The notes beneath the pieces were generated by a model. The model did not search any database, was not told where the DNA came from, and saw nothing but the letters and a program-made list of their open reading frames with translations. A program made the position numbers and the translations under genes. From Squalus acanthias (taxonomy: Eukaryota), in the NCBI GenBank assembly GCA_030390025.1, contig JASTWF010000033.1, forward strand, positions 248,001 through 312,000: a stretch of DNA of 64,000 nt, read 5' to 3'. Positions 4,220 to 38,294 of the stretch are shown here, piece by piece. Position 1 is the stretch's first letter. The number at the start of each line of letters is the position of its first letter.

Positions 4220-5460
4220 TACATAGAAATATATACAAGTTACAACACGGAATCAGACTTTGGACCCAACCAGTCAGTGTCGGCGTTTACCCTCCACACA
4301 AGTAAATAGTTCTAATCACATTTACCCGCCTTTATCCACAGCCCTTCAACCCCTTTCCTACATCCACCTCTCCAATCTAATTGTGAATGTTGACACAATC
4401 CCTTCAACCCCTTTCCTACATCCACCTCTCCAATCTAATTGTGAATGTTGACACAATCCCTTCAACCCCTTTCCTTCATCCACCTCTCCAATCTAATTGT
4501 GAATGTTGACACAGTTTATGCCCCAACCACTAAACCTGGAAGTGAATTCCACAGCCTCATAACTCTCTTTGTGAAGAAGTTTCTCCTGATTGCTGTTCTA
4601 ATTCTCTGACATTTGATCTTGTATCTAAGTCCCCTAAGAGCCCTTCGCCATTGAAAACAGCCTGCTTATATCTACCCCGTCCCATCTTTCATAATTTTAA
4701 ACTTTCCTATTTTATTGACCCATAATCTAAGTTATCAGAACGAAAATTGAGCAATTTTCGCATATTTCTTCATATTTATATTTCATCATACCAGCCAGCA
4801 TTCTACTGAATCTGTGTTGTACAGTCTTTAAATCCTCAATATCCATATTACAGCGAGGAGCCGAATACCGCACACAGTACTCTAACTGAAGTATTATTCT
4901 TACCATTACCTCTTGTTTTTATATTCTATATCTCTTATGATAAAACCTGGAATCCCATTAGCTTTTTTACAGCCTGATCAAGCTGCGGTGCTGCCTCACT
5001 CTTCTCTTCCACAGCTCCGAGCCTACTTCCATTCAGAGAATCATTACTATTCCTTTTGCAAAAATCCACCAGCTCATACTTGCTGATGTTGAATTCCATC
5101 TGCCACTTTTCAGCTCATTCCTCAATTGTATCAATCTCACTTTGCAGCTTCCGTTGGTCTTCCCAATAATTACCTATGCCTCTTATTTAGGTAAAATGTT
5201 CAAATTTCGAAATACTCTCTTTAGGCCCAGACCCAAATCATTGATATACGCGGCGAACGGAAGAATCCCCAGAACTGATTCCTGTGGGATTTCTCTACCC
5301 ACTCCCAACCGTTCTCAATTTAATGAGCTCTCCGTTTTCTCTCTTCTAATCACTAGTAATCCAATGTGCTCTCCTCTCCTTAATTCTGTACTCATTATCC
5401 GTTATTTAATGTCTGCTGTAGTAACTTGTCAAATGCTTTCTTAAAGTCCAGTTACATTAC
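4220..5460 (-). mobile_element. Old CR1 LINE 3' fragment
   Basis: CR1 3' UTR-like start (catagaa...), degenerate ORF2 similarity to other copies in the window. Confidence 0.7.
4342..4513. repeat. 58-bp tandem repeat, 3 copies, inside the CR1 3' end
   Basis: Unit cccttcaacccctttcctacatccacctctccaatctaattgtgaatgttgacacaat at 4342, 4400, 4458. Confidence 0.95.
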
Positions 5461-6022: not shown

Positions 6023-6065
6023 ATGAATAATTTCTGGGTTTCCGTCCTTTTAGCCTGGTTACCAA
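6023..6065 (+). CDS. IgNAR: IgNAR leader exon (MNNFWVSVLLAWLP + phase-1 nucleotide)
   Basis: ATG at 6023, hydrophobic signal peptide like known IgNAR leaders, GTAAG donor at 6066. Confidence 0.92.
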
Positions 6066-6205
6066 GTAAGTGTTGTTTAAGAAAGAGATTAAATGTTAAT
6101 TGGATAAAACTGTGCGGCAGTGTCTACATTGCGGAAATTGCCCTGCCTTTAAACTCTTGTATTGTTTAAGATACGCGACATATTAAATATATTTTCTCCA
6201 TTCAG

Positions 6206-6479
6206 ATGCCTTCGGTGCATATGTAGACCAAACACCAAGAACGGCAACGAAAGAGACAGGCGAATCCCTGACCATCAACTGCGTCCTAACTGATAACAGG
6301 TGTGATTTGCAGAGCACATCCTGGTACCGGAAAAATCCGGGTTCATCAAACCATGAGCAGGTGTCGATTAGCGGCCGATATGTTGAATCAGTCAACAAGG
6401 GAACAAAGTCATTTTCTCTGCGAATCAAGGACCTGACAGTTGCAGACAGTGCCACGTATATCTGCAAAGCTTGTGGAAC
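6206..6479 (+). CDS. IgNAR: IgNAR V segment (VNAR, type II-like): [91 protein letters not shown]
   Basis: Acceptor ttcAG at 6204-6205; open frame in phase with the leader; VNAR hallmarks ([12 protein letters not shown], no CDR2, GRYVES, SFSLRI, DSATYxC); non-canonical Cys in CDR1. Confidence 0.97.
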
Positions 6480-6518
6480 CACAGCAATGGAGGAGGCGGT
6501 CCCTGCAATACACAAACT
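6480..6518 (+). promoter_or_regulatory. V 3' recombination signal, 23-bp spacer
   Basis: CACAGCA (6480-6486), 23 nt, ACACAAACT (6510-6518). Confidence 0.92.
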
Positions 6519-6707
6519 ATCAGCACACTTTGTTACAAGAACAAGGGCACTATTTATCTGTTGCTTAACCTTGAAGAATGGATCCTCAGTATTTTGGAGG
6601 GATAACACTGTTGGTTATAAAAGACACCCTGACAAGAAGTATTGAGGTAGGAAGCTGGTTTGCAGTAAGTGTCTCGACCTGAGGCTCTCGCACTAATGCA
6701 CATGGGA

Positions 6708-6786
6708 CCTTTTTGTAATGGTCTCTATGACTGTGTGGCAATCAGTACCACAGTGATGAATCTTGCATTCCCGTAATACATAAACT
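6708..6786 (+). other. D1 segment (6736-6748, TGGCAATCAGTAC) with 5' 12-RSS and 3' 22-RSS
   Basis: CCTTTTTGT-12-GACTGTG | D | CACAGTG-22-ACATAAACT; all three frames open (WQSV, GNQY, AIS). Confidence 0.92.
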
Positions 6787-7112
6787 GTCCCCACACCTCT
6801 TAATAAAAAGTTAATACAGGTTATTCTCTCGGTGGCTAATAACCTCACGGTTAAATGCTCATTGTCTCTGTCAGACACTGGCTGACATATTAAAGCCTTT
6901 TCTTTATTAATTTCAGTGATATTTCTATCAATATTACGGTCATATTTATAATGGAACATTGATATTTCTCCAGGACTTTTATGAATGGCTGGGAATTATA
7001 ACCGTCTACGGGGATCCCAATATAAAGGCAATGATTTGAATCATATTTACTGCAATTTTCAATCAATATCTTGGAATATTTGAAGGATTTTCTGTGATGT
7101 TTGCAACAATGG

Positions 7113-7181
7113 AGTTCTTGTGCTGGTGTGAAATGATGTGTATACTGCAGTGGCACAGTGACTCGGGCCATAGCACAAACC
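7113..7181 (+). other. D2 segment (7141-7153, TATACTGCAGTGG) with 12-RSS on both sides
   Basis: AGTTCTTGT-12-TGATGTG | D | CACAGTG-12-GCACAAACC; frames YTAV, ILQW, YCS. Confidence 0.9.
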
Positions 7182-7492
7182 TCTCCAACAGTTATCTGTT
7201 ATCCTACTCATGGAGGTGGCTGCATAATGTGCTTCTTGCTCATGGATGTTACTGCATAGAGCTTGAAATCAGTTCCAGTTCGACCTTTGCTTGAAATCGA
7301 TCCGCATTCCCTGATGTTAAATCAGTGGATTATCTTCTTCAGTGTTACAGGAGTTCGCATTGCAAATATTGAATGTCTGATGGAGAGAAACTGACGGAAA
7401 ATGAAGATTTACCAATGACTCCAACATATCTGGAAGGTCCGAGGAGCGGTGATGTTTTGTTGTATTAATTACCGGACCTTTGCTTCAATTAC

Positions 7493-7531
7493 CCTTTTTG
7501 AACTGGGCTGACTGGGAGCTGACTGACTGTG
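7493..7531 (+). promoter_or_regulatory. J 5' recombination signal, 23-bp spacer
   Basis: CCTTTTTGA (7493-7501), 23 nt, GACTGTG (7525-7531). Confidence 0.85.
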
Positions 7532-7581
7532 TGGCTATAACTGGTATAACGGAGGTGGCACCGTGCTGACTGTGAACTCTG
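7532..7581 (+). CDS. IgNAR: IgNAR J segment (GYNWYNGGGTVLTVNS)
   Basis: GxGTVLTVN motif, RSS upstream, phase-1 GTAAG donor at 7582. Confidence 0.95.
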
Positions 7582-8332
7582 GTAAGTGACCTCTCTTGCT
7601 GCTTTATTGATAAGATTTTGATCCTAGAATTTGAAAAGAATCAGTGTTGTCGTTAAAAGCGCAAAATGCAATAGCCGAAGCTCTTTGTGAAGACTCGGTT
7701 AGGTTCACTGTCAATTTATTTGGCATAAACTAAAAAATGGTTTTCAAAAGAGATTTTGCCCGTCAATAAAATAAACCTGTATTTAAATATATAACTTCCG
7801 TCCAAACAAACCCGTATTTAAATATAAAACTTACCTGTCATGCATTTTTTAAGATGCTTATTTGAATAGATTGTGATAGTTTAAATAGTTGAAACGGAAC
7901 CAGCCCAGTAAAGTTACTCCTTACTGAGGTGTCCCAGTACATCTTTGATATACAGTATATCTGATTCGAAGAATTAAAACAATTATTGGAACAGGAACAT
8001 TTGCTGCAAACAAGGAATGAATACAACGTGTAATTTTATAAAATGTTCCCTTGGAAAATCACCACTCTTTATAAAACAATGACCACTAAATTAATATCGG
8101 CACAGATCCTGCAAATATGTTGTCACTTCGAATCGTGTCATTTGTTGGTCGGGATTAATGGCGCACACTTCAGTGACCGAGCTGTAACTCTGAGGAAGCT
8201 CTTTACATGGAAGCCAGTCCCCGAGACACCCGCATTAGAGCTTATCGACGCGCTCTGTGTGTAAGATTAAGCGAGCAGCAGAGAACTTTGAAACTACAGT
8301 GGGTTTCAGTGTAATAAGTGGGCTCTGTTTTA

Positions 8333-8800
8333 GTGTCAGCTGCGGCTCAGTTTGTACCACGCTCGCCTCTGAGTCAGAAGCTTGTGGGTTCCGAGTCCCA
8401 CTCCAGCGACTTGAGCACGATAAATGCAGGCTGACACTCCAGTACAGTGCTGAGGGAGCGCAGCACTTTCGGAGGTGCAATCTTTTGGATGCGACGTTAA
8501 ACTGAGGCCCCGTCTTCTCTCTCAGATAGATGTTAATAGATCCCATGGCATTATTTCGAGAGAAGATCAGGGGAGTTACCCCCGGTGTCTTGGCCAATAT
8601 TTATCCCTCCATCAACATCATATAAACAGATTATCTGGTCATTATCACACTGCTGTTTGTGGGAGCTTGCTGAGCGCAAATTGCCTGCTGCGTTAAGTAC
8701 ATTTCATCAGTGCCTACACTCCAAATGTACTTCACTGGCTGTAAAGCGCTTTGGTACATCCGGTGTTCTTGAAAGGCGCTATATAAATGCAAGCATTTCT
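8333..8800 (+). mobile_element. Near full-length Deu-domain tRNA SINE (SacSINE1-like)
   Basis: tRNA-like head (ggctcagt...gggttccgagtccca), central Deu/LF-SINE-like core (gatcccatggca...ccccggtgtcttggccaatatttatccc), tail gtaaagcgctttgg...aaaggcgctatataaatgcaag. Confidence 0.8.
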
Positions 8801-9972
8801 TTTTAATGTGTATGCATAAAAATGAAGTAAGTGTTATTCAATGCTTCGAGGAGAACAGTGAAGTCTCTGACTTATTGTTTATACTATTTACGGGACGTTT
8901 ACTTATTTTAGTTGAAAAAGCAATCAGTTTATTTAGAGCCTGAGTCTGGGTCTGATAGCCTGTAAATTCAGTCAGCGTTTCGAGGAGAGGAGAATCCCGA
9001 AGCTGATGGGCAGAATCAGGATTTGTTGTTGCCATCCCATGGTCTAGCTATCGCGTGCCTGGAGATTGGACCGGTTAACCTTCGGTACAGATGATCGGAG
9101 TGGGTCCAGCGACATGGGTAGCAATCGGACACGGAATCCGGTAAAATATATACCGTCAAATTCCTAAAACGTGACAAAACGTTAAAATCGATCTGCACCA
9201 TCCCACCAAATAGTTCCAGGCCATGTGAAGCTGATCCACACTCCCTCCGCAGGAGAAGATACACAGCGAATATTACAGGACGACAGATCAGCTGATCAGA
9301 ATGGCCCATGAACTGAGAAAGTGTCTGGTGCAGAACCCCCAAACTGTGGCAGTCAGTAACATGAGAAGAACAGTGTCTTTGAAGGGGGCGGTGGGATACA
9401 GATTGGACTAGAAACTTTGCTGAGGTTCATTGATTCCTCGCAGAGACAGAACACGTCACTGAGCGAAAGGAAAAACGTTCTAAGAAGGCGAGAAAGGCCA
9501 ATTGGTTCCGTTACACGTTTCCATGGGGATTGTTCCACCATGGAATTCCCTCCTCAAACAACTAGGACACTCCAGTTTAAACAGCGCTAAAACTGGCACT
9601 TTTCCCACTTGATATTACAGGGCCAACCGCTTTACTCTATCCGCTGCATTAGCCCAGACCTTAACTGGTCTAGTTAAAATGGGTTCACCGCTCTAGTAGA
9701 AAAGCGAACTGAGGAGAGTCAAGCGTTAAGCCTGGTTCCCTGAGATGGGCAACGGTGATTTTAAAGCTAATTTCCTTCCTTGCCTCCTCGGACTGAACAA
9801 AACGAGTGAAGCAATGGTATTAATATTTCTGTCAATGTTATTCACAGTTCCACTATCATAGGGTAATCATTTTATATAATCTTCCATTTGCCAAAGGATT
9901 GGGAAGAAAGTGCCTGTATTATTAGTCGTTGTCCAGCTTCATGACGTGTTTACTTCCACCTCGCTATTTCAT

Positions 9973-11789: not shown

Positions 11790-14560
11790 AAAGGAGCGTA
11801 TAAATAAAACAAATGCAGTGGATGTTGTGTATATTGATTTTCAAAAGGCGGTTGATACAATGCCAGATAACGGGTTTGTTGCTAAAGTAAAGGTGCGTAT
11901 TATTGAAGAGAGGTAAGAAACTTGGAGAAGAGCTTTACTAAAGGACATAAAGCAGGGGACAGTGGGTAATAATGTAAAATCGCACGTCTGAGGGTTTCAG
12001 TTGCAGGGGGGTTGAAGTAGGATTGCAGGCGGGTGATGTTACGGAGGCTGATGTGCCCAATCATTGCGATGGAAGTATATGGGGTGAAAGGATATGAGGT
12101 TCCATCATGAAGCTAATGCAGAGGCTGCGAAGTGTTTGTTTGTGACTGAGACTGTTGCCAGAGAGGCGGTTAGAATTAGTGGTCCGGGAACAGAGTTTGC
12201 GACAGGGATAAATATTAAAGGTAAAGCTAGCATATGCTATATGCTTTGATAGCCTGTCACATATATAGTGAGAAGAAAAAATCACTGATTACGAAAATAA
12301 ATATATTTGCATTTGCAGCCTTGTTCTCAAATTGTCCTTGGTGTATTCACTGAGCCCGTCGGATGTGGCATTAGATTAATAATTTGCAATTTTCTAATGC
12401 TTTCCTCATTTGGCAGAGAGTTCTCCATGCGATTTCTTACTTAGCGCTGATGAGCAATTCATAAAGTGCTTTGTTTATCACAGTCACTTCTCTCCCTATT
12501 TGTTTATTCTTAACCATCCTGCTGCAATATGCACACCTTGAATAATTGTCATGTCATTCTATGTGAATTAAACCACTTCTTCAGTAGGATCACTGCCTGC
12601 AAACTTGTGATGGCCGAATGTTACATGTGAGGACTGCAAAAATCTAAGCTTTAGTATTGCACAAAGAGATTCCTGAAATGTTGAGGAGGTTATTGGGAAG
12701 TTGTGGAAGGTTATGGAGAGTATTATTGTGAAGTCCCTTGGATAAGTAGGAACACTAAGAGGAGAGTTAAAAAGTGGCACGTGAGAAATCTAAAGATAAG
12801 ATTAGATTAAAGATGAAGAACGGAATCTTCTTCAGGAAGATGAATGAATGAAGGAGATGCTAACCAACGACTTTGTCTCGGCTTTTAAAAAAATACATTA
12901 GTGGGAGTTGAAAGGTACAAGGGTAGAATGCGGAGCAGCTCAATATGAAAAATATAGATAAAGAAGGAGTGCTGAAAAAATGATGGAAGTCAAAAGATGG
13001 CCTGTATCCTAGAATGTTGAGAACAGACATGCAGCAAATAGTAGATGCTCTGACCACAAACTTTCAATCAACCTAGGATCTGAAACCTGTGACAGACGAC
13101 TAATATATTATCTTTGTTCAAGAAGGGAGAGAAGTATAACTGTGTTGCAGTCAGCCAATCGCCGGAAGTGGGTCATATTCTACAGTCAGAAATTAACATT
13201 CACTAACAGAGAAATCTTTTAATTAAAGACAGTTAGCAGGTGTCTGTAAAAGTCAAGTTCTCCCTGACAGATATACAGAGTTCTTCGAAGAACTCTGCAC
13301 ATTTCCAGTTCAGTTCTGGGCACCACACCTCAGGAATGATATATTAGCCTTGAAGGGATGCAGTGCAGGTTCACCAGAATTATATCAGGGCTAAAAATGT
13401 TAAATTATGTGGACAGGCCGCACAGACTAGGCTTGTATTCCCTTGAACATAGAATATTAAGCGGTGATTTAACTGATTAAGCGGTGTTTAAGATGATTAA
13501 AGGGTTTGATGGTGTGGATAGAGAGAAAATATTTCCTGGTGGTGTCAAGAACAAAGGGGCATAACATTAAAGTTAAAGCTCGACCTTTCAAGGATGAATT
13601 CCGGAAGCAGTTCTTCACAAATCTGTTGCGGAAATCTGGAATTATTTCCTCCAAAAGGCTGTTGAGCTTATGTCAACTGTAAAGTGCAAAAATAACATAG
13701 ATATATTTTTGTCATGTATGGGTATTAAGGTTTACGGAACTAAGGCGTGTAGATGTAGTTAAGATACATTTTGGCCTTGATTACATTGAAGGGCGGAATA
13801 GGCTCACGGGGATGAATATCCTATTCATGTTCCTACGAAATAACGGAGCGTATAAATAAAACAAATGCAGTTGATGTTGTGTATATTGATTTTCAAAAGG
13901 CGGTTCATACAATGCCAGATAACGGGTTTGTCGATAAAGTAAAGGTGCGTATTATTGAAGAGAGGATAGAAACTTGGGGAAGAGCTTCACTAAAGGACAT
14001 AAAGCAGGGGACAGTGGTTAATAATGCAAAATCGGATTGGAGGAATGTAAGCTCGAGTGTTGCTAAAGGTTTAGTATTCGAACTATATGTAATAGGATTC
14101 GAGTATAGGAGGCTGAATGTCATAATTTTAAAATGAATTCTGCAGTTCCCAGACAGTTTAGTAGATTGGGCAGGTAGATGGCAGATGACATGCAATATGG
14201 AGAATATAAAGTGATATATTTTGAGAGGAAGAATGAGATAACATATTTATTAAATTGTAATGTTTTTAATGGAGAAGAAGAATAGAGAGACACAGGTGTT
14301 CAGATAGACAGCTCATTAAAAGTGGAAGGCTGTTAATTCAACGTACGGGTTGCTCGGCTTTCTCAGCAGGGGTAGCGAATGCTAAAGAGAAAGGAGAGAG
14401 AACCCAACATTTAAAAATCATTGTTTAGGCCTAAATTTAAGATTATGTCCCGTTTTGGTGCCTTACGTTAGGAAGGATGTCAAGGTCATGGAGAGGGTGC
14501 AGAAGGGATTCACCGAGATAATGCCTCAGACGGGAAGCTTTAGTAATGAGAAGAATATAA
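11790..14560 (+). mobile_element. Patchwork of old CR1 fragments
   Basis: VYIDFQKA motifs at ~11830 and ~13880, CR1 3' end at ~13300-13840. Confidence 0.65.
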
Positions 14561-15275: not shown

Positions 15276-16502
15276 GCTCTTTTCATGAGAACAAACTGTA
15301 AGAGGCAGTCAAATTATGAAGCATTTGATAAGCTAAATGGAAATAAAGTACGTGCATTGGTCGGTAACTAAAGGGTATAATTTCAAAATCTTCAGCCAAA
15401 GAACGAAAAGAGAGATAAGGAGAGCTATTTTATTTTAGAGAGCTTGCTCGGACAAGGGACGTCCTACCACAAACAGAATCAGCACATTATTTTAAAAAGG
15501 AGGTAGGCAAACATTTGAAAATCGAAGTATGGGGAAAGGACAGGGAAATAGTGCTTAAGAATAAAATTTCTGCTGCGCCGCTCCTTAACGGGAACTGCGC
15601 AATCCCAGCCGTGATTCTCCATTCACCATAGTGAATTGATATAAAATACAGGCTGGGAATGGGCAATTGCTCCATGTGCGCTCCCGGCGTCCGCCACCAG
15701 GGGCGCAGCGGTGTTTCTACTCCTTCGTGGATTGCTCTTGCTCAGAGCCGGCAGTGGCGCCCTGATCTGAATGAATCCTTCAGTGCTGTAAATGCTAGGA
15801 TTCTATCGGTCCCTCAACTAGCATTACCAAACCTCACTGCTGTCTCAGATCCCTGAGTTACGAAATCAAAGTGCTCCAAAAGCAGGAAAATTAAAAGAGG
15901 TTATTGGTAACAATAATCGATATACATTTAATATCTGACCCCAAATCGAGAGTACAGATGTTTTCGGCAAGGTGCATTGATCATCCTTCACTCCGAAATT
16001 AACAAGTGATCGGAATATTATTTGAATGTTCAATCATTACCAGAACCTCTTTATCCTAACACGCCCACTGTAATGTCGTCACAATTCCTCCCAGCTTCAA
16101 TACACCACAGCCACACAGCAATAGTAAATTGTAGTTTGTTAAACACAGAGTCGCTGGGAAAGTGGCAACGCCAGTTGGTATAATCCCTTATCACGCTGTG
16201 GCCTTGGACTTTGTACTTTCCCGTAATAAAACAATGCAACTCGTAAAACAATAATATATTGTTGAATGTGAATGGATCGGTAACATTTCAGATGAGGTTA
16301 ATTTTACTAATAAACTCTTATATGTCACCAATGTGTGTTAAACATTGCCGAGCCCGTGGCTGCGAGCCAATCACATTATCTTAATCAATAGCTGGTCCCT
16401 AGTTTTCAAAATATTTCAGGTGGTGTCAAATTTCACAGCGATGTTAAGGGAAGTAAAACAAACGACAATTATCCACAGACAATACGTTCAATACATAAAA
16501 TA

Positions 16503-16720
16503 AGAAAGACTTGAATTTCTATCGCGCCTTTTACGTCATCAGGACGTCCCAAAGCGCTCTATAGCCAACGACATATTTTTGAAGTGTAGTCACTGTTGCA
16601 ATGTAGTAAACGCGGCAGCCAATTTGTGCACAGCATGATTCATAAAACAGCAATGTGATAATGCGTTGGTTGAGGGATAAGTATTGGCCAGGACACGGTA
16701 GAAATGGTCTAATCTTCATG
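16503..16720 (-). mobile_element. Deu-domain SINE, 3' half only, cut by the CR1 tail
   Basis: Matches 85-300 and the reverse complement of ~8550-8800; similarity stops at the CR1 tail. Confidence 0.8.
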
Positions 16721-18692
16721 ATACATAGATACATAGATACATAGAAGATAGGAGCAGGAGTAGGCCATCCGGCCCTTCGAGCCTGCTCCGCCATTTAATG
16801 AGATCATGGCTGATCCTTCAATTCAGTATCCCGTCCCCGCCTTCTCTCCGTAACCCTTAACCCCTTTTGCCTGTAGAAATATATCTAATTCCCTCTTAAA
16901 TATATTTAATGAGCTGGCGTACACTGCCCTCTGTGGCAATGAGTTCCACAGGTTCACCACTCTCTGAGTGAAGAAATTCCCCCTCATTTCTGTCCTAAAT
17001 GGTTTAGCCCTTATCCTTAAATTATGTCCTCTAGTTCTGTTCTCACCCGCCAAGGGAAACATTCCTTCTGCATCTAATCTGTCTAGACCTGTCAGAATTT
17101 TATACACTTCTATGAGGTCCCCTCTCAATCTTCTAAACTCCAGTGTGTACATCCCTAAACTACATAGTCTCTCCTCATAGGTCAATCCCGCCATTCCTGG
17201 TATCAGCCTGGTGAATCGCCGCTGCACCCCCTCCATGGCAAGAACATCTTTCCTCAGATGAGGCGACCAAAACTGTACACAGTACTCGAGGTGTGGTCTC
17301 ACCAGTGCCCTGTACAGCTGCAGCAAGGTATCCCTGTTCCTGTATTCCAACCCTTTTGCTATGAAGGCCAGCATACCGTTTGCCTTCTTGACCGCCTGTT
17401 GCACCTGCATGCTCGCCTTCAGTGACTGGTGTACAAGAACACCCAGGTCTCTCTGTACTTCCCCCTCTCCCAATTTATTGCCATTTAAATAATAATTTGC
17501 CCTCCCGTTCCTGCACCCAAGGTGGATAACTTCGCACTTGTCCACATTATAGTGCATCTGCCATTTATCCGCCCAATCACCCAGTCTGTCCAAATCGCTC
17601 TGGAGCTTCCTGGTCTCCTCCTCTGAGCCCACCCCCCCTCCTAGTTTAGTGTCGTCTGCAAATTTGGAAATGCTGCATTCGACTCCCTGATCCAGGTCAT
17701 TAATATAAATTGTGAACAGCTGGGGACCCAGGACAGATCCCTGTGGTACCCCACTTGTTACTGCCTGCCATTCAGAAAATGAGCCGTTTATTCCAACTCT
17801 CTGTTTTCTATCTGACAGCCAGTTCTCTATCCACGTCAATACTTTCCCCTTTATCCCATGAGCTTCAATTTTCCATGCTAATCTTTTATGTGGGACCTTA
17901 TCGAAGGCCTTTTGGAAGTCCAGGTACACCACATCTACTGGCTCTCCCCCATCTATTTTACCAGTTTCTCCCTCAAAAAATTCCAATAGATTAGTCAAGC
18001 ACGATTTACCCTTTGTAAATCCATGTTGACTCTGTCCTATCCTGTCCCCATTTGCTAAGTGCTCGGCTATTTCATCCTTAATGATGGACTCCAGCATTTT
18101 GCCCACAACTGATGTAAGGCTTACAGGTCTGTAATTACCTGCTTTTTCCCTACCCCCCTTTTTGAATAGTGGGGTAACGTTAGCTACCCTCCAATCCATG
18201 GGCACTGTTCCCGAGTCTAATGAATTCTGAAAAATCATGCTTAGTGCATCCGCTATCTCTAGGGCCACCTCCTTCAGTACCCTAGGATGCATGTTATCAG
18301 GCCCTGGGGATTTGTCCGCCTTCAATCCCTTTAGCTTCCTTAACACCATATCCTTAGAGATATTGATTTGCGTCAGTTCCTCCTTTGCCAATGTCCCTAT
18401 TTTTCCCGATATCCCAGGGAGGTTTTTTGTGTCTTCCTTCGTAAAGACTGACCCAAAGTATGCATTTAGTTGGTCTGCCATTTCCTTATTTCCCATTATA
18501 TATTCCCCCGTATCTGACTGCAATGGACCAACTTTGGTTTTCACCAGTCTTTTCCTCTTGATATACTTATAAAAGCTTTTGGAGTTAGTTTTTATATTTT
18601 CCGCCAGCTTGCTTTCGTAAGCTATTTTGCCCTTCTTGATTAAGCCCTTTGCCCTCCTTTGCTCTATCTTAAACTGTTCCCAATCTTCCGCT
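16721..18692 (-). mobile_element. Young 5'-truncated CR1 LINE with uninterrupted ORF2 RT/C-terminal region
   Basis: Over 600 codons without a stop ([24 protein letters not shown]), stop at 16823, 3' UTR and short TCTATGTA-type tail; 5' end fused to the IgNAR C5 exon. Confidence 0.97.
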
Positions 18693-19043
18693 CTGCCTCC
18701 ATCGGCGGACGAGATTGACACTGAGAATACGGCTACCCTGGTGTGTCTAGCCACCGGATTTTACCCTGCCGAGATTTACATCGCTTGGATGGCCAATGAC
18801 ACCCTTTTGGATTCAGCTTACCCGAGCCAACCGGACACCGAGAAGACAAACGGTTCCGGCTCCATTGGCAGCAGGCTGAGACTGACCGCGGCGCAGTGGA
18901 ACAGCGGCACCACTTACTCCTGTTTAGTGGGACACCCGTCCCTCAAAATGAATTTAATCAGAAGTATAAATAAATCTCACGGTAAACCTACTTTAGTGAA
19001 TATTTCACTTGTTCTAACCGACAGTTTTAAATCGTGTGCATAA
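18693..19043 (+). pseudogene. IgNAR: IgNAR last constant exon (C5) plus secretory tail, 5'-truncated (native acceptor and roughly the first dozen codons missing)
   Basis: LPPSADEIDTENTATLVCLATGFYPAEIYIAWMANDTLLDS...WNSGTTYSCLVGHPSL...; tail GKPTLVNISLVLTDSFKSCA* with NIS sequon and penultimate Cys; internal TM donor G|GTAAAC at 18981/18982; upstream sequence is antisense CR1. Confidence 0.93.
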
Positions 19044-19370
19044 CCCCCCGTGGTTGAGTAGCTGATTCCTATCGAAGTGTTACCGCTGTTCTGTTCATCA
19101 CTGTTTGAGCATCTGAATCAGCGAATCTCCCATTTATCCAACCTCACTGTCACCCTCCAGATCAGAGAGCAATTCTTGAGATATTTTGCTAATATATGAA
19201 ACTATATCAGTCAATGTTGGATAAATATGGTTAGAATCAGAAAACCATGAATAACCTTAGTACCGTTTAAAAGAAGTTGCAACATTGTTTTAGATCCATT
19301 GAAGGGTTCAGTGACGTTATTGGATAAATAGGAAATGGCGTTTTAGTCTGTATGTGGCTTCGCTAATTGC

Positions 19371-19376
19371 AATAAA
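19371..19376 (+). terminator. Candidate polyadenylation signal for the secretory form
   Basis: AATAAA about 330 nt after the secretory stop, followed by GT-rich sequence near 19410-19425. Confidence 0.55.
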
Positions 19377-19689
19377 TGCAGAATGAAAACCTTCTGTCTC
19401 CCAGAATCTTTGTTTTTGTGTGTGTTATCTCCGCGATGATGATTTACAACTTGATCAAGATATATATGGTGTCCTTGTCTAATCTTGGACGTGTGCAGCA
19501 CTTTTCCATTCCCTCACTTTTTAGAGACATTACGGGTGATTTGAATCAGACTGCACTAATCCTCACCATTCTTGGCAGCTTCCGGAACTCCTGTGATTTA
19601 CAATTGGCCAATGAGCTATCTACTTGTAGAACGGAGTGAATAAAGGTGGACGAACATCCGGTCATCCTTTAGAACGCCAATTAATGGCC

Positions 19690-20690
19690 AAGACTGGTGA
19701 TTGCCTGGTGTCACGCTTACTTATCTAGTGGTAGCCAGAGAATCTCCTGCAAGGGCTTCTCTTCCGGCTCCCTCACCGTTACCTCTGGAGTCTCCAGAGG
19801 ATATATCCTTGGTGCCCTCCTCTTTCTCATCTACATGCTGCCACTCGGTGACATCATCCGAAATCAGATTCCACATGTACGCTGAAGACACCCAGCTCTT
19901 CCTCACCATCACCTCTCTCAATCCTTGCACTGCCTCTGATTTGTGATGCTGTTTGTCCGGCATCTCGAATTGGATGAGCAGAAATGTCCTCTAATTAAAT
20001 ATTGGGAAGACCGAAGCCATGTTCTTCGAACCGCGCCACAAACTCCATTTCCCAGCCACCGACTCCATCCTACTCCCTTTTACTACAATTTTATGAGGCT
20101 GAGCCAGACTGTTTGCATCCTTGGAATCATAACTGACCCTGATCTGAACTTCCGACCATATATCCACTCCGTCACCATGACCACCTACTTCCACCTCAGT
20201 AATAGCGCCTGTCTGTGTCCCGTGTCGCAGCTCACCTACTGCTCAAACACTGTGTGACGTCCAGACTCGACTATTCCAATGTTCTCCTGGCTGGCCTCCC
20301 ATTTTTTACCCTCTGTAAGATTGAGCTCATCCAAAACTATGCTGCCCTCTCCTAAATCGCACCAAGTCCAATTCAGACATCAGCCATCTGATCGCTGACC
20401 TACATTGGCTCCTGGTCCGGCAACGCATAAGTGGTAGAATTCTTATCCTTGTTTACATATCCCCACATGGCCTCGCCCCTCCGTATATCTGTATATCCAT
20501 CACATACCATTGGCATGCGCGCCTTCAGCTGCCTCCTCACAGCCTACCTCTTTGACCAAGCTTTTGGTCATCTGCTATAATATCTCCTTATTTGGCTTGG
20601 TGTCAAATTATGTTTGATGACGCTCCTGTGAAGCGCCTTGGGACGATTTGCACCGTTAAAGATGCTCTATGAATGCAACTTGATGTTGTT
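19690..20690 (+). mobile_element. L2 LINE 3' fragment
   Basis: SGVSRGYILGALLFLIYMLPLGDIIR and FHMYAEDTQL RT motifs; L2 tail gtgaagcgccttgggacg. Confidence 0.85.
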
Positions 20691-20779: not shown

Positions 20780-21200
20780 GCTTGGTTCATTGCCAGCTGC
20801 CTGGCCTCTGAATCAGAAGGTTCTGAGTTCAAGCTCCTCTCCAGGACCTCGACCCACAATCGTGGCTGACAATCCAATGCAACGATCACGGGGTTGCTCA
20901 GTTGTCAAAGGTGAGCAGTTCCGGATGATAAACTTCTCCCAGGCCTCGTCCAACTGTTCAGTTGACTGTTAAAGATCCAATGGGAGTACTGAGGGAGCAG
21001 CGAGCTCTCCTGGAGTCTGGCCCTATGTTCTGTTACTTGTTAGACTAAATTCCCATTTACCTCAATGCTGCTTTTCGGGCCTTGCTCTGGGTAAATTATC
21101 TGTGGAGTTGTTGATCAAACACTTTAAACAGTAACTATTTGGCTGTGAAGGTTTTGGGACCTCTTGAAGCCCTGAAAGGCGATCTATGAAGTGAAATATG
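20780..21200 (+). mobile_element. Degenerate Deu-domain SINE
   Basis: Colinear similarity to 8333-8800. Confidence 0.6.
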
Positions 21201-23080: not shown

Positions 23081-23238
23081 AAACTCCAATAATAAGTGAA
23101 GATCCAGATGACCACGAGGTCGAGGACGGAGGATTAGAAAACTTAAATGAGGATGCCGGCACTACAGCAACAGTGGTCGCTCTCGTCATCCTGTTTATTC
23201 TCAGTATCCTGTACAGCACATTTGTAACCGTCATCAAG
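23081..23238 (+). CDS. IgNAR: IgNAR transmembrane exon TM1 (ETPIISEDPDDHEVEDGGLENLNEDAGTTATVVALVILFILSILYSTFVTVIK)
   Basis: ttccAG acceptor 23079-23080, phase 1; acidic spacer then Ig CART-type TM motif (LFILSILYSTFVT); GTAATG donor at 23239. Confidence 0.92.
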
Positions 23239-23668
23239 GTAATGCCGACCTTCAATAGCACAGTGACACTGTGCAAATTCATTGGAAACGTGAGTTTATT
23301 CTTTAGATATAGTTAAGGTGCTAATGATGAACTAAATATTCCAATATCAGCATTAATCCTATCGTCCCCACAGTATCAGATTGTACTTCATTATTCTTTC
23401 CCATGTGATTAACTGTCACATTTAATAAGCCTGCTGAATATGATGAATTAACAGAGGAAGGCATGCATATGAGTATTAATGGGACATATAAGAGCATATA
23501 TATATATATTTCAAAAATGGAATGTATTACTTTGCTCCTAGATTGTGGGTCGGTAGAAGCACAGTGAAAAGGACAGCGATTTATCAAATGATTACGAGTG
23601 ATAACCCAGAAATATTTAGCGACATGGTGATAAACAAGCTTCCTGGGAATAGTGAGCATAACAGGTTT

Positions 23669-33600: not shown

Positions 33601-33965
33601 AGGCGATTTTCTTAAAGCTAGAGCGGCGAGGCGGCAGAGGCAGCGGACCTGCGAGGGAACAGAGGTGGCATGCGGCGGTACTTAAGGTGAGCTTCGAGGC
33701 GGCAGACAAATCCAGGTTCCGGGCGAGGGAAGCAAAAAATATTCGTAGTGTGACGTCACCAAAAAGCAGGTAAGTGATTGGTTGGTGAGTGTTTTCTTTC
33801 TCAATTTTTCTAAACTTAAATTTTGTGGCTTCTACGTTCTCTTTGTGTAGCGGGGACTACGGTTAAGTAAGGGCACTTAAGTATATCACTTAATTCCAGT
33901 GTAATTGGTGGGATCCATTTAATTTTAATTTAATTTTAATTAATTAATTAATTAAAGGGTAAGTC

Positions 33966-34916
33966 ATGGCAGGACAGCTCGGTGCTGTGACATGCTCTTC
34001 CTGCGCTATGTGGGAAATCAGGGACACTTCCTGTGTCCCTGACAACCATGTGTGTGGGAAATGTATCCAGCTGCAGCTACTGACAGACCGCATTGCGGCA
34101 CTTGAGCTGCGGATGGATGCATATTGGAGCATTCGTGATGCTGAAAATATCGTCGATATCACGTTTAGGGAGTTGGTCACACCGCAGGTAAAGGGTGTAC
34201 AGGCAGGAAGGTAATGGGTGACCACCAGGCAGAGTAATAGGCGCAGGCAGGTAGTGCATGAGTCACCTGTGGCCATCCCCCTCTCAAACAGATATACCGC
34301 TTTGGATATTGTTGAGGGAGATGGCTTATCAGGGGAAGACAGCAGCAGCCAACTTCCTAGCACCATAGGTGGTTCTGCTGCACAGGATGGGAGGAAAATG
34401 AGTGGGAGAGCTATCGTGATAGGGGATTCTATTGTAAGGGGAATAGATAGGCGTTTCTGCAGCAGCAAGCGAGACTGCAGGATGGCATGTTGCCTCCCTG
34501 GTGCAAGGGTCAAGGATGTCTCAGAGCAGCTACAGAGCATTTTGGAAGGGGAGGGTGAACAGCCAGTTGTCGTCTTACAGATAGGTACCAACGATTTTCG
34601 TAAAAAACGGGATGAGGTCCTAAAAGCAGAATATAGGGAGTTAGGAGGTAAATTAAAAAATAGGACCTCAAAGGTGGTAATCTCAGGATTGCTACCAGTG
34701 CCACATGCTAGTCAGAATAGAAATAGAAGGATATTTCAAATGAATACGTGGCTAGAGGAATGGTGCAAGGGAGAGGGATTCAAATTCCTCGGGCATTGGA
34801 ACCGGTTCTGGGGGATGTGGGACCAGTACAAACCGAACGGTCTACACCTGGGCAGGGCCGGGACCGATGTCCTAGGGGGAGTGTTTGCTAGTGCTCTGGG
34901 GGAGGGTTTAAACTAA
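33966..34916 (+). pseudogene. CR1 ORF1: zinc finger/leucine zipper plus SGNH/GDSL esterase, one premature stop (34212-34214)
   Basis: CSSCAMW...CGKC; LSNRY; IVIGDSIVRG; GTND; NGLHL; both ORF pieces are in the same frame. Confidence 0.9.
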
Positions 34917-35102
34917 AATGGCAGGGGGTTGGGTACCTGAGCAGGGAGTCAGAGGAAAGGGAAACAAGGATAAAAGCAAAAGATAGGAAGGAGAAAAACA
35001 AAAGTTGCAGTCAGAGAAAACAACGGTTTAAATCAAACATGGCCACAGTAAATAGTAATTCTAATAGGTCTAAGAGCGTTAAAAAAAACAAGCCTGAAGG
35101 CT

Positions 35103-37889
35103 TTGTGTCTTAATGCAAGGAGCATTCGGAACAAGGTGGACGAATTAGCTGCGCAAATAGAGGTAAACGAATATGATTTGATTGGGATTACCGAAACATG
35201 GCTCCAGGGTGGCCTAGGCTGGGAACATAATATCCAGGGGTACTCAATATGCAGGAAAGATAGGCAAAAAGGAAAGGGAGGTGGGGTAGCATTGCTCGTT
35301 AAAGAGGGGATTAACACAATTGAAAGGAAGGATATTAGCTCTGATGATGTGGAATCTGCATGGGTTGAACTGAGAAATAACAAGGGGCAGAAAACGTTAG
35401 TGGGAGTGATATATAGACCTCCAAACAGTAATGCGGAGTTTGGGGATGGCATTAAAAGGGAAATTAGAGAAGCGTGCAATAAGGGCACAGCAGTCATCAT
35501 GGGTGACTTAAATCTACATATAGATTGGGCTAACCAAATGTGTAACAATACTATGGAGGAGGAATTCCTGGAGTGTTTACGGGACGGTTTCCTGGACGAA
35601 TATGTCGATGAACCAACCAGACATCAGGCCATCTTAGACTGGGTATTATGCAATGAGAAAGGATTAATTAGCAATCTTGTTGTGCGAGGCCCCTTGGGTC
35701 GGAGCGATCATAATATGATAGAATTCTTCATTAGGACGGAGAGTGAAGTAGGTGACTCAGAGACTAGGGTCCTGAATTTAAATAAAGGAAACTACGATGG
35801 TATGAGGTGCGAGTTGGGTAGGATTGATTGGGGAATGTCACTCAAGGGGTTGACGGTGGATAGGCAATGGCAAACATTCAAAGACTGCATGGACGACCTA
35901 CAGAACTTGTTAAACCCAGTTTGGAATAAGAATAAAACAAAAAGGGTAACTCAACCATGGCTAACAAGGGAAATTAGGGATAGCATATGATCCAAGGAGA
36001 GGGAAATATAAATTGGCCAGAAAAAGCAGTAACCCTGTGGATTGGGAGCAGTTTAAGATTCAACAAAGCAGGACAAAGGGATTAATTAAGAAGGGGAAAA
36101 TAGAATACGAGAGTAAGCTTTCAGGGAACATAAAAACTGACTGTAAAAGCTTTTATAGATATGTGAAGAGTAAAAGATTAGTGAAATCAAGCATAGCTCC
36201 CTTGCAGTCAGAATCAGGGGAACTTATAATGGGGAACAAAGAAATGTCAGACCAATTAAATACATATTTTGGTTCTGTCTTCACAAAGGAGGACACAAAT
36301 AACCTCCCAGAGATGTTGGGGAACATAGGGTCTGATGAAAGGGAGGAACTGAAAGAAATCAGTATTTGTAGGGCAATGGTGTTAGGGAAATTGAACGGAT
36401 TGAAGGCCGATAAATCCCCAGGGCCTGATAATCTACATCCTAGGGTACTTAAGGAAGTGGCCCTAGAAATAGTAGATGCATAGCTGATCATCTTCCAACA
36501 ATCATTGGAATCTGGAAAAGAACCCATGGTTTGGAGGGTAGCTAATGTTACCCCACTATTCAAAAAGGGTGGTAGAGAGAAAACGGGGAATTACAGACCG
36601 GTAAACCTGACATCGGTAGTGGGGAAAATGCTAGAGTCTATTGTAAAATATGTAATATCTGAGCACTTGAAAAACAGTGACAGTATCGGACAAATTCAAC
36701 ATGGATTTACAAAAGGTAAATCATGCTTGACTAATCTATTGGAATTTTTTGAGGATGTACCTGGTAAAATAGATAAGGATGTGGTGTATTTGGTCTTCCA
36801 AAAGGCATTTGATAAGGTCCCGCATAAGAGATTAGCGTGCAAAGTTAAGGCACATGGGATTGGGGGCAAGGTATTGACTTGGATGGAGAACTGGTTGGCA
36901 ATCAGAAAGCAAAGAGGTGCAATAAACGGGTCTTTTTCCGAGTGGCAGGGAGTGACTAGTGGGCTACCGCAGGGATCGGTCCTTGGACCCCAGCTATTCA
37001 CAACATATATTAATGATCTAGACAAGGGAACGAGATGTAATATCTCCAAGTTTGCAGACGACATAAAACTGGGTGGGCGTGTGTGCTGCGATGAGGTTGC
37101 CGAGAAACTCCAGGATGATTTGGACAGGTTGGGTGATTGGGCAGAAGCGTGGCAGATGCAATATAACGTGGATAAATGCGAGGTTATCCACTTGGTTGTC
37201 AAAAACAGGAAGGCAGATTATTATCTGAATGGCAATAGATTGGGAGAAGGGGAAGTGCATCGAGACCTGGGTGTCCTTGTGCACCAGTCGCTGAAGGTAA
37301 GCATGCAGGTGCAGCAGGCGGTTAAGAAGGCAAATGGTATCTGGCCTTCATAGCGAGAGGGTTTGAGTACAGCAATAACGATGTCTTGCTGCAGTTGTAC
37401 AGGGCCTTGGTGAGACCACACCTTGAGTACTGTGTGCAGTTTTTGTCGCCTTATCTGAGGAAGGATGTTCTTGCCATTGAAGGAGTTCAGCGAAGATTCA
37501 CTAGGCTGATACCTGGGATGGCAGCAATGACGTATGAAGAAAGATTGGGACGATTGGGATTATACTCGCTGGAGTTTAGAAGAATGAGAGGGCATATCAT
37601 TGAAACTTATAAAATTCTGACAGGACAGGACAAACTAGATGCAGCAAGGATGTTCCCGATGGTCGGGGAGTCCAGAACCAGGGATCACAGTCTAAGGATA
37701 AGGGGTAAGACATTTAGGTCATAAATGAGGAGGAATTTCTTCACCCAGAGAGTGGTGAACCTGTGGAATTCTCTGCCACAGAAGGCAGTAGAGGCCAATT
37801 CATAAAATAGATTCAAGAAGGAGTTGGATATATTTCTTAAGGCTAAAGGGATCAAGGGTTATGGGGATTAAGCAGGGACAGGGTACTGA
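35103..37889 (+). pseudogene. CR1 ORF2: APE endonuclease and reverse transcriptase with several stops and a frameshift
   Basis: NARSI, ITETWL, YRPP, MGDLN, SDH; [21 protein letters not shown]; stops at 35988 and 36481, frameshift near 37340. Confidence 0.93.
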
Positions 37890-38294
37890 ATTTGGATGAT
37901 CAGCCATGATCGCATTGAATGGCGGAGCAGGCTAGACGGGCCGAATGGCCTACTCCTGCTCCTATCTTCTATGATTCTATGATTCTATGAAAGACCATAT
38001 ATGAACACTGGCCAAACCAAGTTTTGATAAGAAATGGGTTAAAACCTTGATACTCGATAAACAACTTTACACAGACATTACTGCGAGAACAAAGGAACAC
38101 ACTGAAGACTACGTCATCTGTGTCCGAGAGGTTCGAGAGACCAAGGGCTGCGAGTTACTCGTTAAACTATCGCCTGTTGTTCAGTCTATAACATTGTAAG
38201 CTTATTCAACTTCTGATCTATTGCGCAAACATACAGGTCGCCGCCTATTGGTATCTTGTCCAAGAACTCAGAGATCATTAACATCTTACAGAAG

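Follow-up and report, generated by a model that had tools for sequence, protein, structure and literature searches.

A candidate CR1 insertion with a long target-site deletion in an IgNAR cluster of Squalus acanthias

In a 64,000-nucleotide stretch of Squalus acanthias DNA (assembly GCA_030390025.1, contig JASTWF010000033.1, positions 248,001 to 312,000 of the forward strand; hereafter the window), a young CR1 retroelement stands between an old SINE and the C5 coding sequence of an IgNAR cluster, in the place where the exons for C1-C4 would be expected. The locus raises the question of whether the CR1 copy took these exons away as it inserted, whether the insertion and the deletion were separate events, or whether the arrangement came about in another way, and what the remaining cluster could still produce.

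A single germline IgNAR cluster, on the plus strand, lies in the window (Table 1). The leader, V, two D segments and J are kept, each of them open and provided with splice sites and RSS that are usable. The top PDB match of the VNAR exon was the shark VNAR structure 4hgk (E 1.8e-44), which we take to be the spiny dogfish VNAR domain. The C5 remnant was 78% identical to Triakis IgNAR and 69-78% identical across IgNAR-type proteins, compared with 56-67% for long IgW-type proteins. An IgW identity for the cluster was thus rejected, considering that the C domain is nearer to the IgNAR type and the V is nearest to shark VNAR structures. The RSS across 6480-7582 follow the order 23, 12-D-22, 12-D-12, 23. 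The usual number of D segments in an IgNAR cluster is three; two are present here, one D having been lost or pre-joined. The J of this cluster reads WYNGGG, not YYDGAG. Between J and the SINE and CR1 lies a 9 kb intron with old repeats, and an old CR1 fragment in the J-C intron carries a 193-bp direct duplication (94%; 11790-11982 and 13842-14034). Upstream of the leader, an old CR1 3' region contains three near-perfect 58-bp tandem copies (4342-4513). Past the donor of the TM exon, the frame stays open at 23239-23316, and a match to the same read-through in P0024 means that distant sharks have conserved this intronic stretch. A crude pattern search found no second TM micro-exon. A 49-bp satellite array, which gave more than 400 overlapping 300-nt matches (~40040-62000), begins ~17 kb past the TM exon.

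Table 1. Features of the IgNAR cluster and of the CR1 copy, in window coordinates.
Feature	Position	Strand	Description
Leader exon, MNNFWVSVLLAWLP	6023..6065	+	phase-1 GT donor at 6066; like the P0015 and P0017 leaders
VNAR exon	6206..6479	+	open; both canonical Cys, plus an extra CDR1 Cys
23-bp RSS 3' of the VNAR exon	starts 6480		heptamer CACAGCA
D segment 1	6736..6748	+	12-RSS upstream, 22-RSS downstream
D segment 2	7141..7153	+	12-RSS on each side, the 5' one degenerate
J segment, GYNWYNGGGTVLTVNS	7532..7581	+	preceded by a 23-RSS; phase-1 GT donor at 7582
Old SINE, 3' part	16493..16718	-	segments of 76% and 87% to the full copy at 8316-8809
5'-truncated young CR1	16720..18695	-	1,976 bp; without ORF1 and endonuclease
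CR1 3' tail	16720..16745	-	(GATACATA)x3.2, 8-bp unit
Acceptor-like AG at 18621, antisense CR1	18598..18621	+	in phase with J; candidate, one among many
Microhomology CTG, 3 bp	18693..18695		common to the CR1 5' end and C5; right breakpoint
C5 remnant and secretory tail	18693..19043	+	ends Cys-Ala-stop; first ~10 codons and acceptor gone
IgNAR TM exon	23081..23238	+	phase-1 acceptor, open; 58% to the P0024 TM region

A complete IgNAR cluster needs five C exons. When full IgNAR proteins were used as queries, no C1-C4 exon was found in the whole 64-kb window, which rules out that C1-C4 were displaced elsewhere within it. The C1-C4 domains of two IgNARs, searched against positions 1-40,000, gave the C5 remnant, a paralogue, as the sole significant match, and all other matches of these single-domain queries had E>0.2. 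C5, whose exon start was inferred from P0015 and P0017, is present from 18693 without its start and acceptor. The loss of C1-C4 and of the start of C5 that the first-pass annotation had reported is therefore real in this sequence. The deletion likely comprises at least ~1.26 kb of C1-C4 coding sequence plus ~0.3 kb plus introns, and would amount to several kb. Because V, D and J are unrearranged, a somatic B-cell switch-type deletion was excluded.

The CR1 copy at 16720-18695 is the sole long CR1 stretch in the window that is free of stops and frameshifts, the remaining copies having stops or breaks. Its frame at 16826-18694 on the minus strand is stop-free over 623 codons and encodes an RT domain (RVT_1). 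An older, near full-length CR1 on the plus strand (33963-37990) carries an esterase ORF1, an endonuclease and an RT, with stops and frameshifts. The two copies are 80% identical, and the GDSL esterase and endonuclease are found only in the older one; considering that the older copy retains both, ~2.1 kb is missing from the 5' end of the young CR1. With the RT and the tandem tail in the young copy, and the APE endonuclease and esterase in its 80%-identical older relative, the element would belong to the CR1 clade rather than to L2, a label given by architecture.

Positions 16000-19700 were compared with the assembled contigs (Logan) of four of the 21 matching runs listed, none of which is recorded as RNA. 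X1 and X4 are DNA runs from organism A, and X3 and X9, from organisms B and A, respectively, were guessed to be RNA. The comparison covered 40 of 58 rows and 32 of 46,990 pieces and, for X4, 55% of the run.

At the left end, the SINE at 16493-~16718 corresponds to the full copy (8316-8809) in its 3' part only. Its similarity reaches at least 16717 and the CR1 tail begins at 16720, 2-3 nt away. The ~270-bp 5' part of the SINE was not found beyond the CR1 on the far side; in the window, it matched only the full copy, the one at 63-351 and, at 20801, a 45-bp head on the plus strand. The CR1 tail thus lies in the middle of a SINE whose 5' half is not on the far side, as had been noticed at first. 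A short 5' end is shared by the SINE copy at 63-351, so the missing 5' part is a weak sign by itself, and what counts is not the shortness of the SINE but that its break coincides with the CR1 tail. A contig of X3 carries the same diverged SINE copy (16539-16718, six differences) and has 47 further unaligned letters, which may be the empty site. The comparison masked 16719-16746, and more than 31 letters are what a non-repetitive continuation would give. A GATA overlap at the CR1 3' junction is possible. No TSD was found, the one shared 5-mer lying away from the junctions, and the earlier remark on its absence was borne out. The SINE is likely of the SacSINE1/Deu type; the full copy (8316-8809) had no match in Rfam. 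The Deu-SINE/SacSINE1 family is described in PMC5499810.

At the right end, the contigs supply both parent sequences. In X3 and X9, native C5 is preceded by AAAGTCTACGTC, reading K-V-Y-V and then LPPS, and the native ...TACGTC before C5 mismatches the window at 18692 and 18691. A contig of X1 continues 93 letters past 18693 into sequence absent from the window. An intact C5 start is present in three of the four runs (X1, X3 and X9), X4 having no coverage there. On the other side, X3, X9 and X4 show the CR1 subfamily going on after 18695 with GCGCTTTTTTTGGCT, and this GCGC... mismatches the window at 18696. Agreement of the window with C5 begins at 18693 and with CR1 ends at 18695, which leaves the 3-bp CTG as the overlap, and no bases were inserted. 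The truncated CR1 5' end therefore does run straight into C5 coding sequence, whereas the 7-bp microhomology once proposed (ctctgcc, 18691-18697) is broken at 18691 and 18692 on the C5 side and at 18696 on the CR1 side. Likewise, RAEDW in the peptide GGRAEDWEQF, read earlier from the CR1 strand, stands, but its GG is C5 antisense, the subfamily reading SARAEDW. An overlap of 3 bp would occur by chance with a probability of ~5%, and both parents were read in other individuals, at a divergence of 1-2%.

The CR1 differed from the contigs at 10 of 1691 positions in X3 and 9 of 1604 in X9 (0.6%), and the IgNAR flanks with C5 at 16 of 1317 in X1 and 35 of 1753 in X3 (1.2-2.0%; Fisher p 0.075 and 0.0002 for CR1 versus flank counts). 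Considering that the CR1 is nearer to the contigs than the IgNAR flanks are, the insertion likely postdates the split from the sampled IgNAR clusters. Among the nine listed differences in the CR1 frame, four are derived in the window, three are ancestral and two could not be assigned; because the window holds the older state at three of nine, part of the 0.6% reflects lineage difference, not decay. Four of these nine are synonymous (p 0.17). The window-only C5 changes among the listed rows are two, both non-synonymous (S>G and E>Q), as would be expected after loss of function. Private changes are similarly few in CR1 and C5, in counts too small to time events. The event had been called recent because both frames lack stops. 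This holds relative to cluster divergence (0.6% versus 1.2-2.0%), but stop-free frames are expected anyway at so few changes (p 0.63). The shark mutation rate is low, 7e-10 per generation in another order (PMC10587355), and at this rate 0.2-0.6% would correspond to millions of generations, though the true decay may be much less. The CR1 thus appears young relative to cluster divergence and need not be recent in years.

Taken together, a CR1 insertion with a long target-site deletion is the best reading of the locus, and we regard it as probable. The CR1 endonuclease would have nicked inside the old SINE at ~16719, and reverse transcription, primed at the 3' tail of the RNA, would have halted after ~2 kb. 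The far target end would then have been resected, or a second break lay downstream, and the cDNA end would have been joined to C5 at the CTG overlap of 3 bp, with loss of everything between the SINE and C5 codon ~11, namely the SINE 5' part, C1-C4 and the C5 acceptor. This reading is favoured because the left break has the full 3' tail, the right break has a 5'-truncated end with a 3-bp microhomology, a TSD is lacking, and relatives carry both intact C5 and the same SINE copy. The mechanism is an established one, of which the locus would be a new instance. A retrotransposition-mediated deletion was already suggested in the first-pass annotation and is retained here for the tail, the truncation and the lack of a TSD, although the same sequence would be expected from two steps, an origin that the annotation did not name.

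In such a two-step origin, a longer CR1 would have inserted into the SINE with a short TSD and an unrelated microhomology deletion would later have run from the CR1 into C5. We consider this possible but rather unlikely. The final sequence would be identical, and a 3-bp overlap also marks ordinary end joining. Long target truncations were found in none of 25 wild-type ZfL2-2 inserts and in five of 25 in Ku70-/- cells (PMC2666801); that they are rare in repair-proficient cells would count against a one-step event, as does the fact that CR1/L2 inserts usually have TSDs of 3-5 bp (PMC4245944). Broken IgNAR clusters are also common, three of seven in the bamboo shark (PMC8692893). On the other hand, two steps call for a second rare event whose left break fell within at most ~2.1 kb of a young copy (at most 0.6% from its subfamily), and CR1 and C5 have similarly few private changes, though too few for timing.

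The arrangement could also be an assembly join or chimera, in which flanks from different IgNAR clusters were collapsed through near-identical CR1s or came from a chimeric read. The CR1 subfamily is abundant and near-identical, with contig depths of 1e5-1e6 in the DNA runs, IgNAR clusters are multicopy, and no run confirmed the junction: among the matches listed in the four runs, no contig bridged either junction. For X3 and X9, adding up two non-bridging contigs accounts for the whole depth of bin 18604-18727 (304.4 and 662.8). The contigs of the four runs all depart from the window at 18858, 18894 and several flank sites, and the highest word share of any run was 0.60. In X1, the depths of the variant contigs (61.2 and 54.9) add up to that of the shared stretches (113-116), which leaves little room for a third contig type. 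The X1 contigs at 16247-16360 comprise two intron variants of similar depth, with 7 and 2 differences from the window, which points to two or more types of IgNAR cluster in organism A. Probably, the individuals sampled do not have the window haplotype or the contigs dropped it; because contigs drop rare variants, the missing bridging contig and window alleles are not proof. The reads neither confirm nor refute the junction. However, a collapse requires two independent insertions of the same subfamily in the same orientation and in matching order in paralogous clusters, and the two flanks, free of indels, carry private substitutions that none of the four runs has, as a single distinct haplotype would. 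Furthermore, each junction links a repeat to unique sequence and bears base-level LINE signatures, and must therefore exist. An assembly origin is thus improbable.

Recombination between two CR1 copies, the other route named at first, fared worst, and NAHR between a CR1 in the J-C1 intron and a CR1 inside C5 is very improbable: retroelement recombination is a known deletion route (PMC4859970) and subfamily copies are ~99% alike, but it requires an earlier CR1 insertion in the same orientation in the C5 exon, half of a TSD is visible at neither end, the two parental copies were not found, and identity to the older CR1 runs without a step (0.76-0.84 per 200 bp; an insensitive test).

The favoured insertion with target-site deletion has parallels in several reports. 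As in the L-TST of ZfL2-1 and ZfL2-2 (PMC2666801, PMC4245944), a CR1/L2-type element with 5' truncation, 5' microhomology and no TSD accompanies a kb-scale loss on its 5' side; about 50% of the ZfL2-2 5' junctions have microhomology, and the ZfL2 target truncations span 343-50,187 bp (PMC2666801). The ZfL2 events were obtained in DT40 and HeLa cells, mostly without Ku70, whereas ours is a single sequence from a shark germline. Target-site deletions by L1, Alu and SVA occur in human and primate genomes (PMC4859970), where a retroelement likewise spans an exon-removing deletion, but here the insert is a CR1 with an 8-bp tandem tail instead of poly(A) and the target is an antigen-receptor cluster. 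The white-spotted bamboo shark, too, has broken IgNAR clusters lying beside complete ones; those are without V, in contrast with the window cluster, which keeps leader, V, D, J, Sec and TM and loses C1-C4, and the available sections of that report give no mechanism (PMC8692893). Short IgNAR isoforms (V-C1-C2-C3-TM, and a secreted form without C2-C3; PMC8692893, PMC4279169) similarly indicate that loss of C domains is tolerated; they are RNA forms that keep C1, whereas here C1-C4 are gone from the DNA. A literature search, with few subscription papers within reach, found no report of a CR1-bridged IgNAR deletion, and the main text of PMC10468316 mentions neither IgNAR nor CR1.

The window cluster cannot make a normal IgNAR. 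It is most likely non-functional, a pseudogene and one more broken IgNAR cluster, because J is left without a normal C acceptor and numerous cryptic ones lie in the antisense CR1 (11 of the 16 acceptor-like sites between J and C5). We consider it very unlikely that the cluster acts as a constant-less IgNAR, in which V-D-D-J would rearrange and be joined in phase to TM or to the AGs at 18621 or 18607, or would lend its V to other clusters. J and the TM exon share phase 1, so that a V-TM product would keep the frame and yield a V-only membrane receptor. Splicing to 18621 is predicted to give a 24-residue linker open into C5 and the secretory tail, which would amount to a secreted V-linker-C5 mini-antibody with the tail cysteine, and splicing to 18607 a stop after ten residues, so that V plus ten residues would be a natural free nanobody. 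A search with the TM peptide gave 0 of 41 candidates; a V search gave 8 of 32, which says little on V-TM forms. In the nurse shark, V can be expressed with the C region of another cluster (PMC4279169), and inter-cluster switching would plausibly be the sole route that keeps the window V useful.

VNAR libraries may draw V segments, or PCR products lacking a normal constant region, from the cluster. If its V-D-J were expressed as V-TM or V-C5, the importance would be far greater, because the accessible reports describe no IgNAR form that lacks C1-C4. Resolved to the base, the locus is a candidate for a multi-exon deletion driven by CR1 in an antigen-receptor locus of a cartilaginous fish, and such CR1 deletion would be one way for Ig clusters to die or be reshaped in shark genomes rich in repeats.
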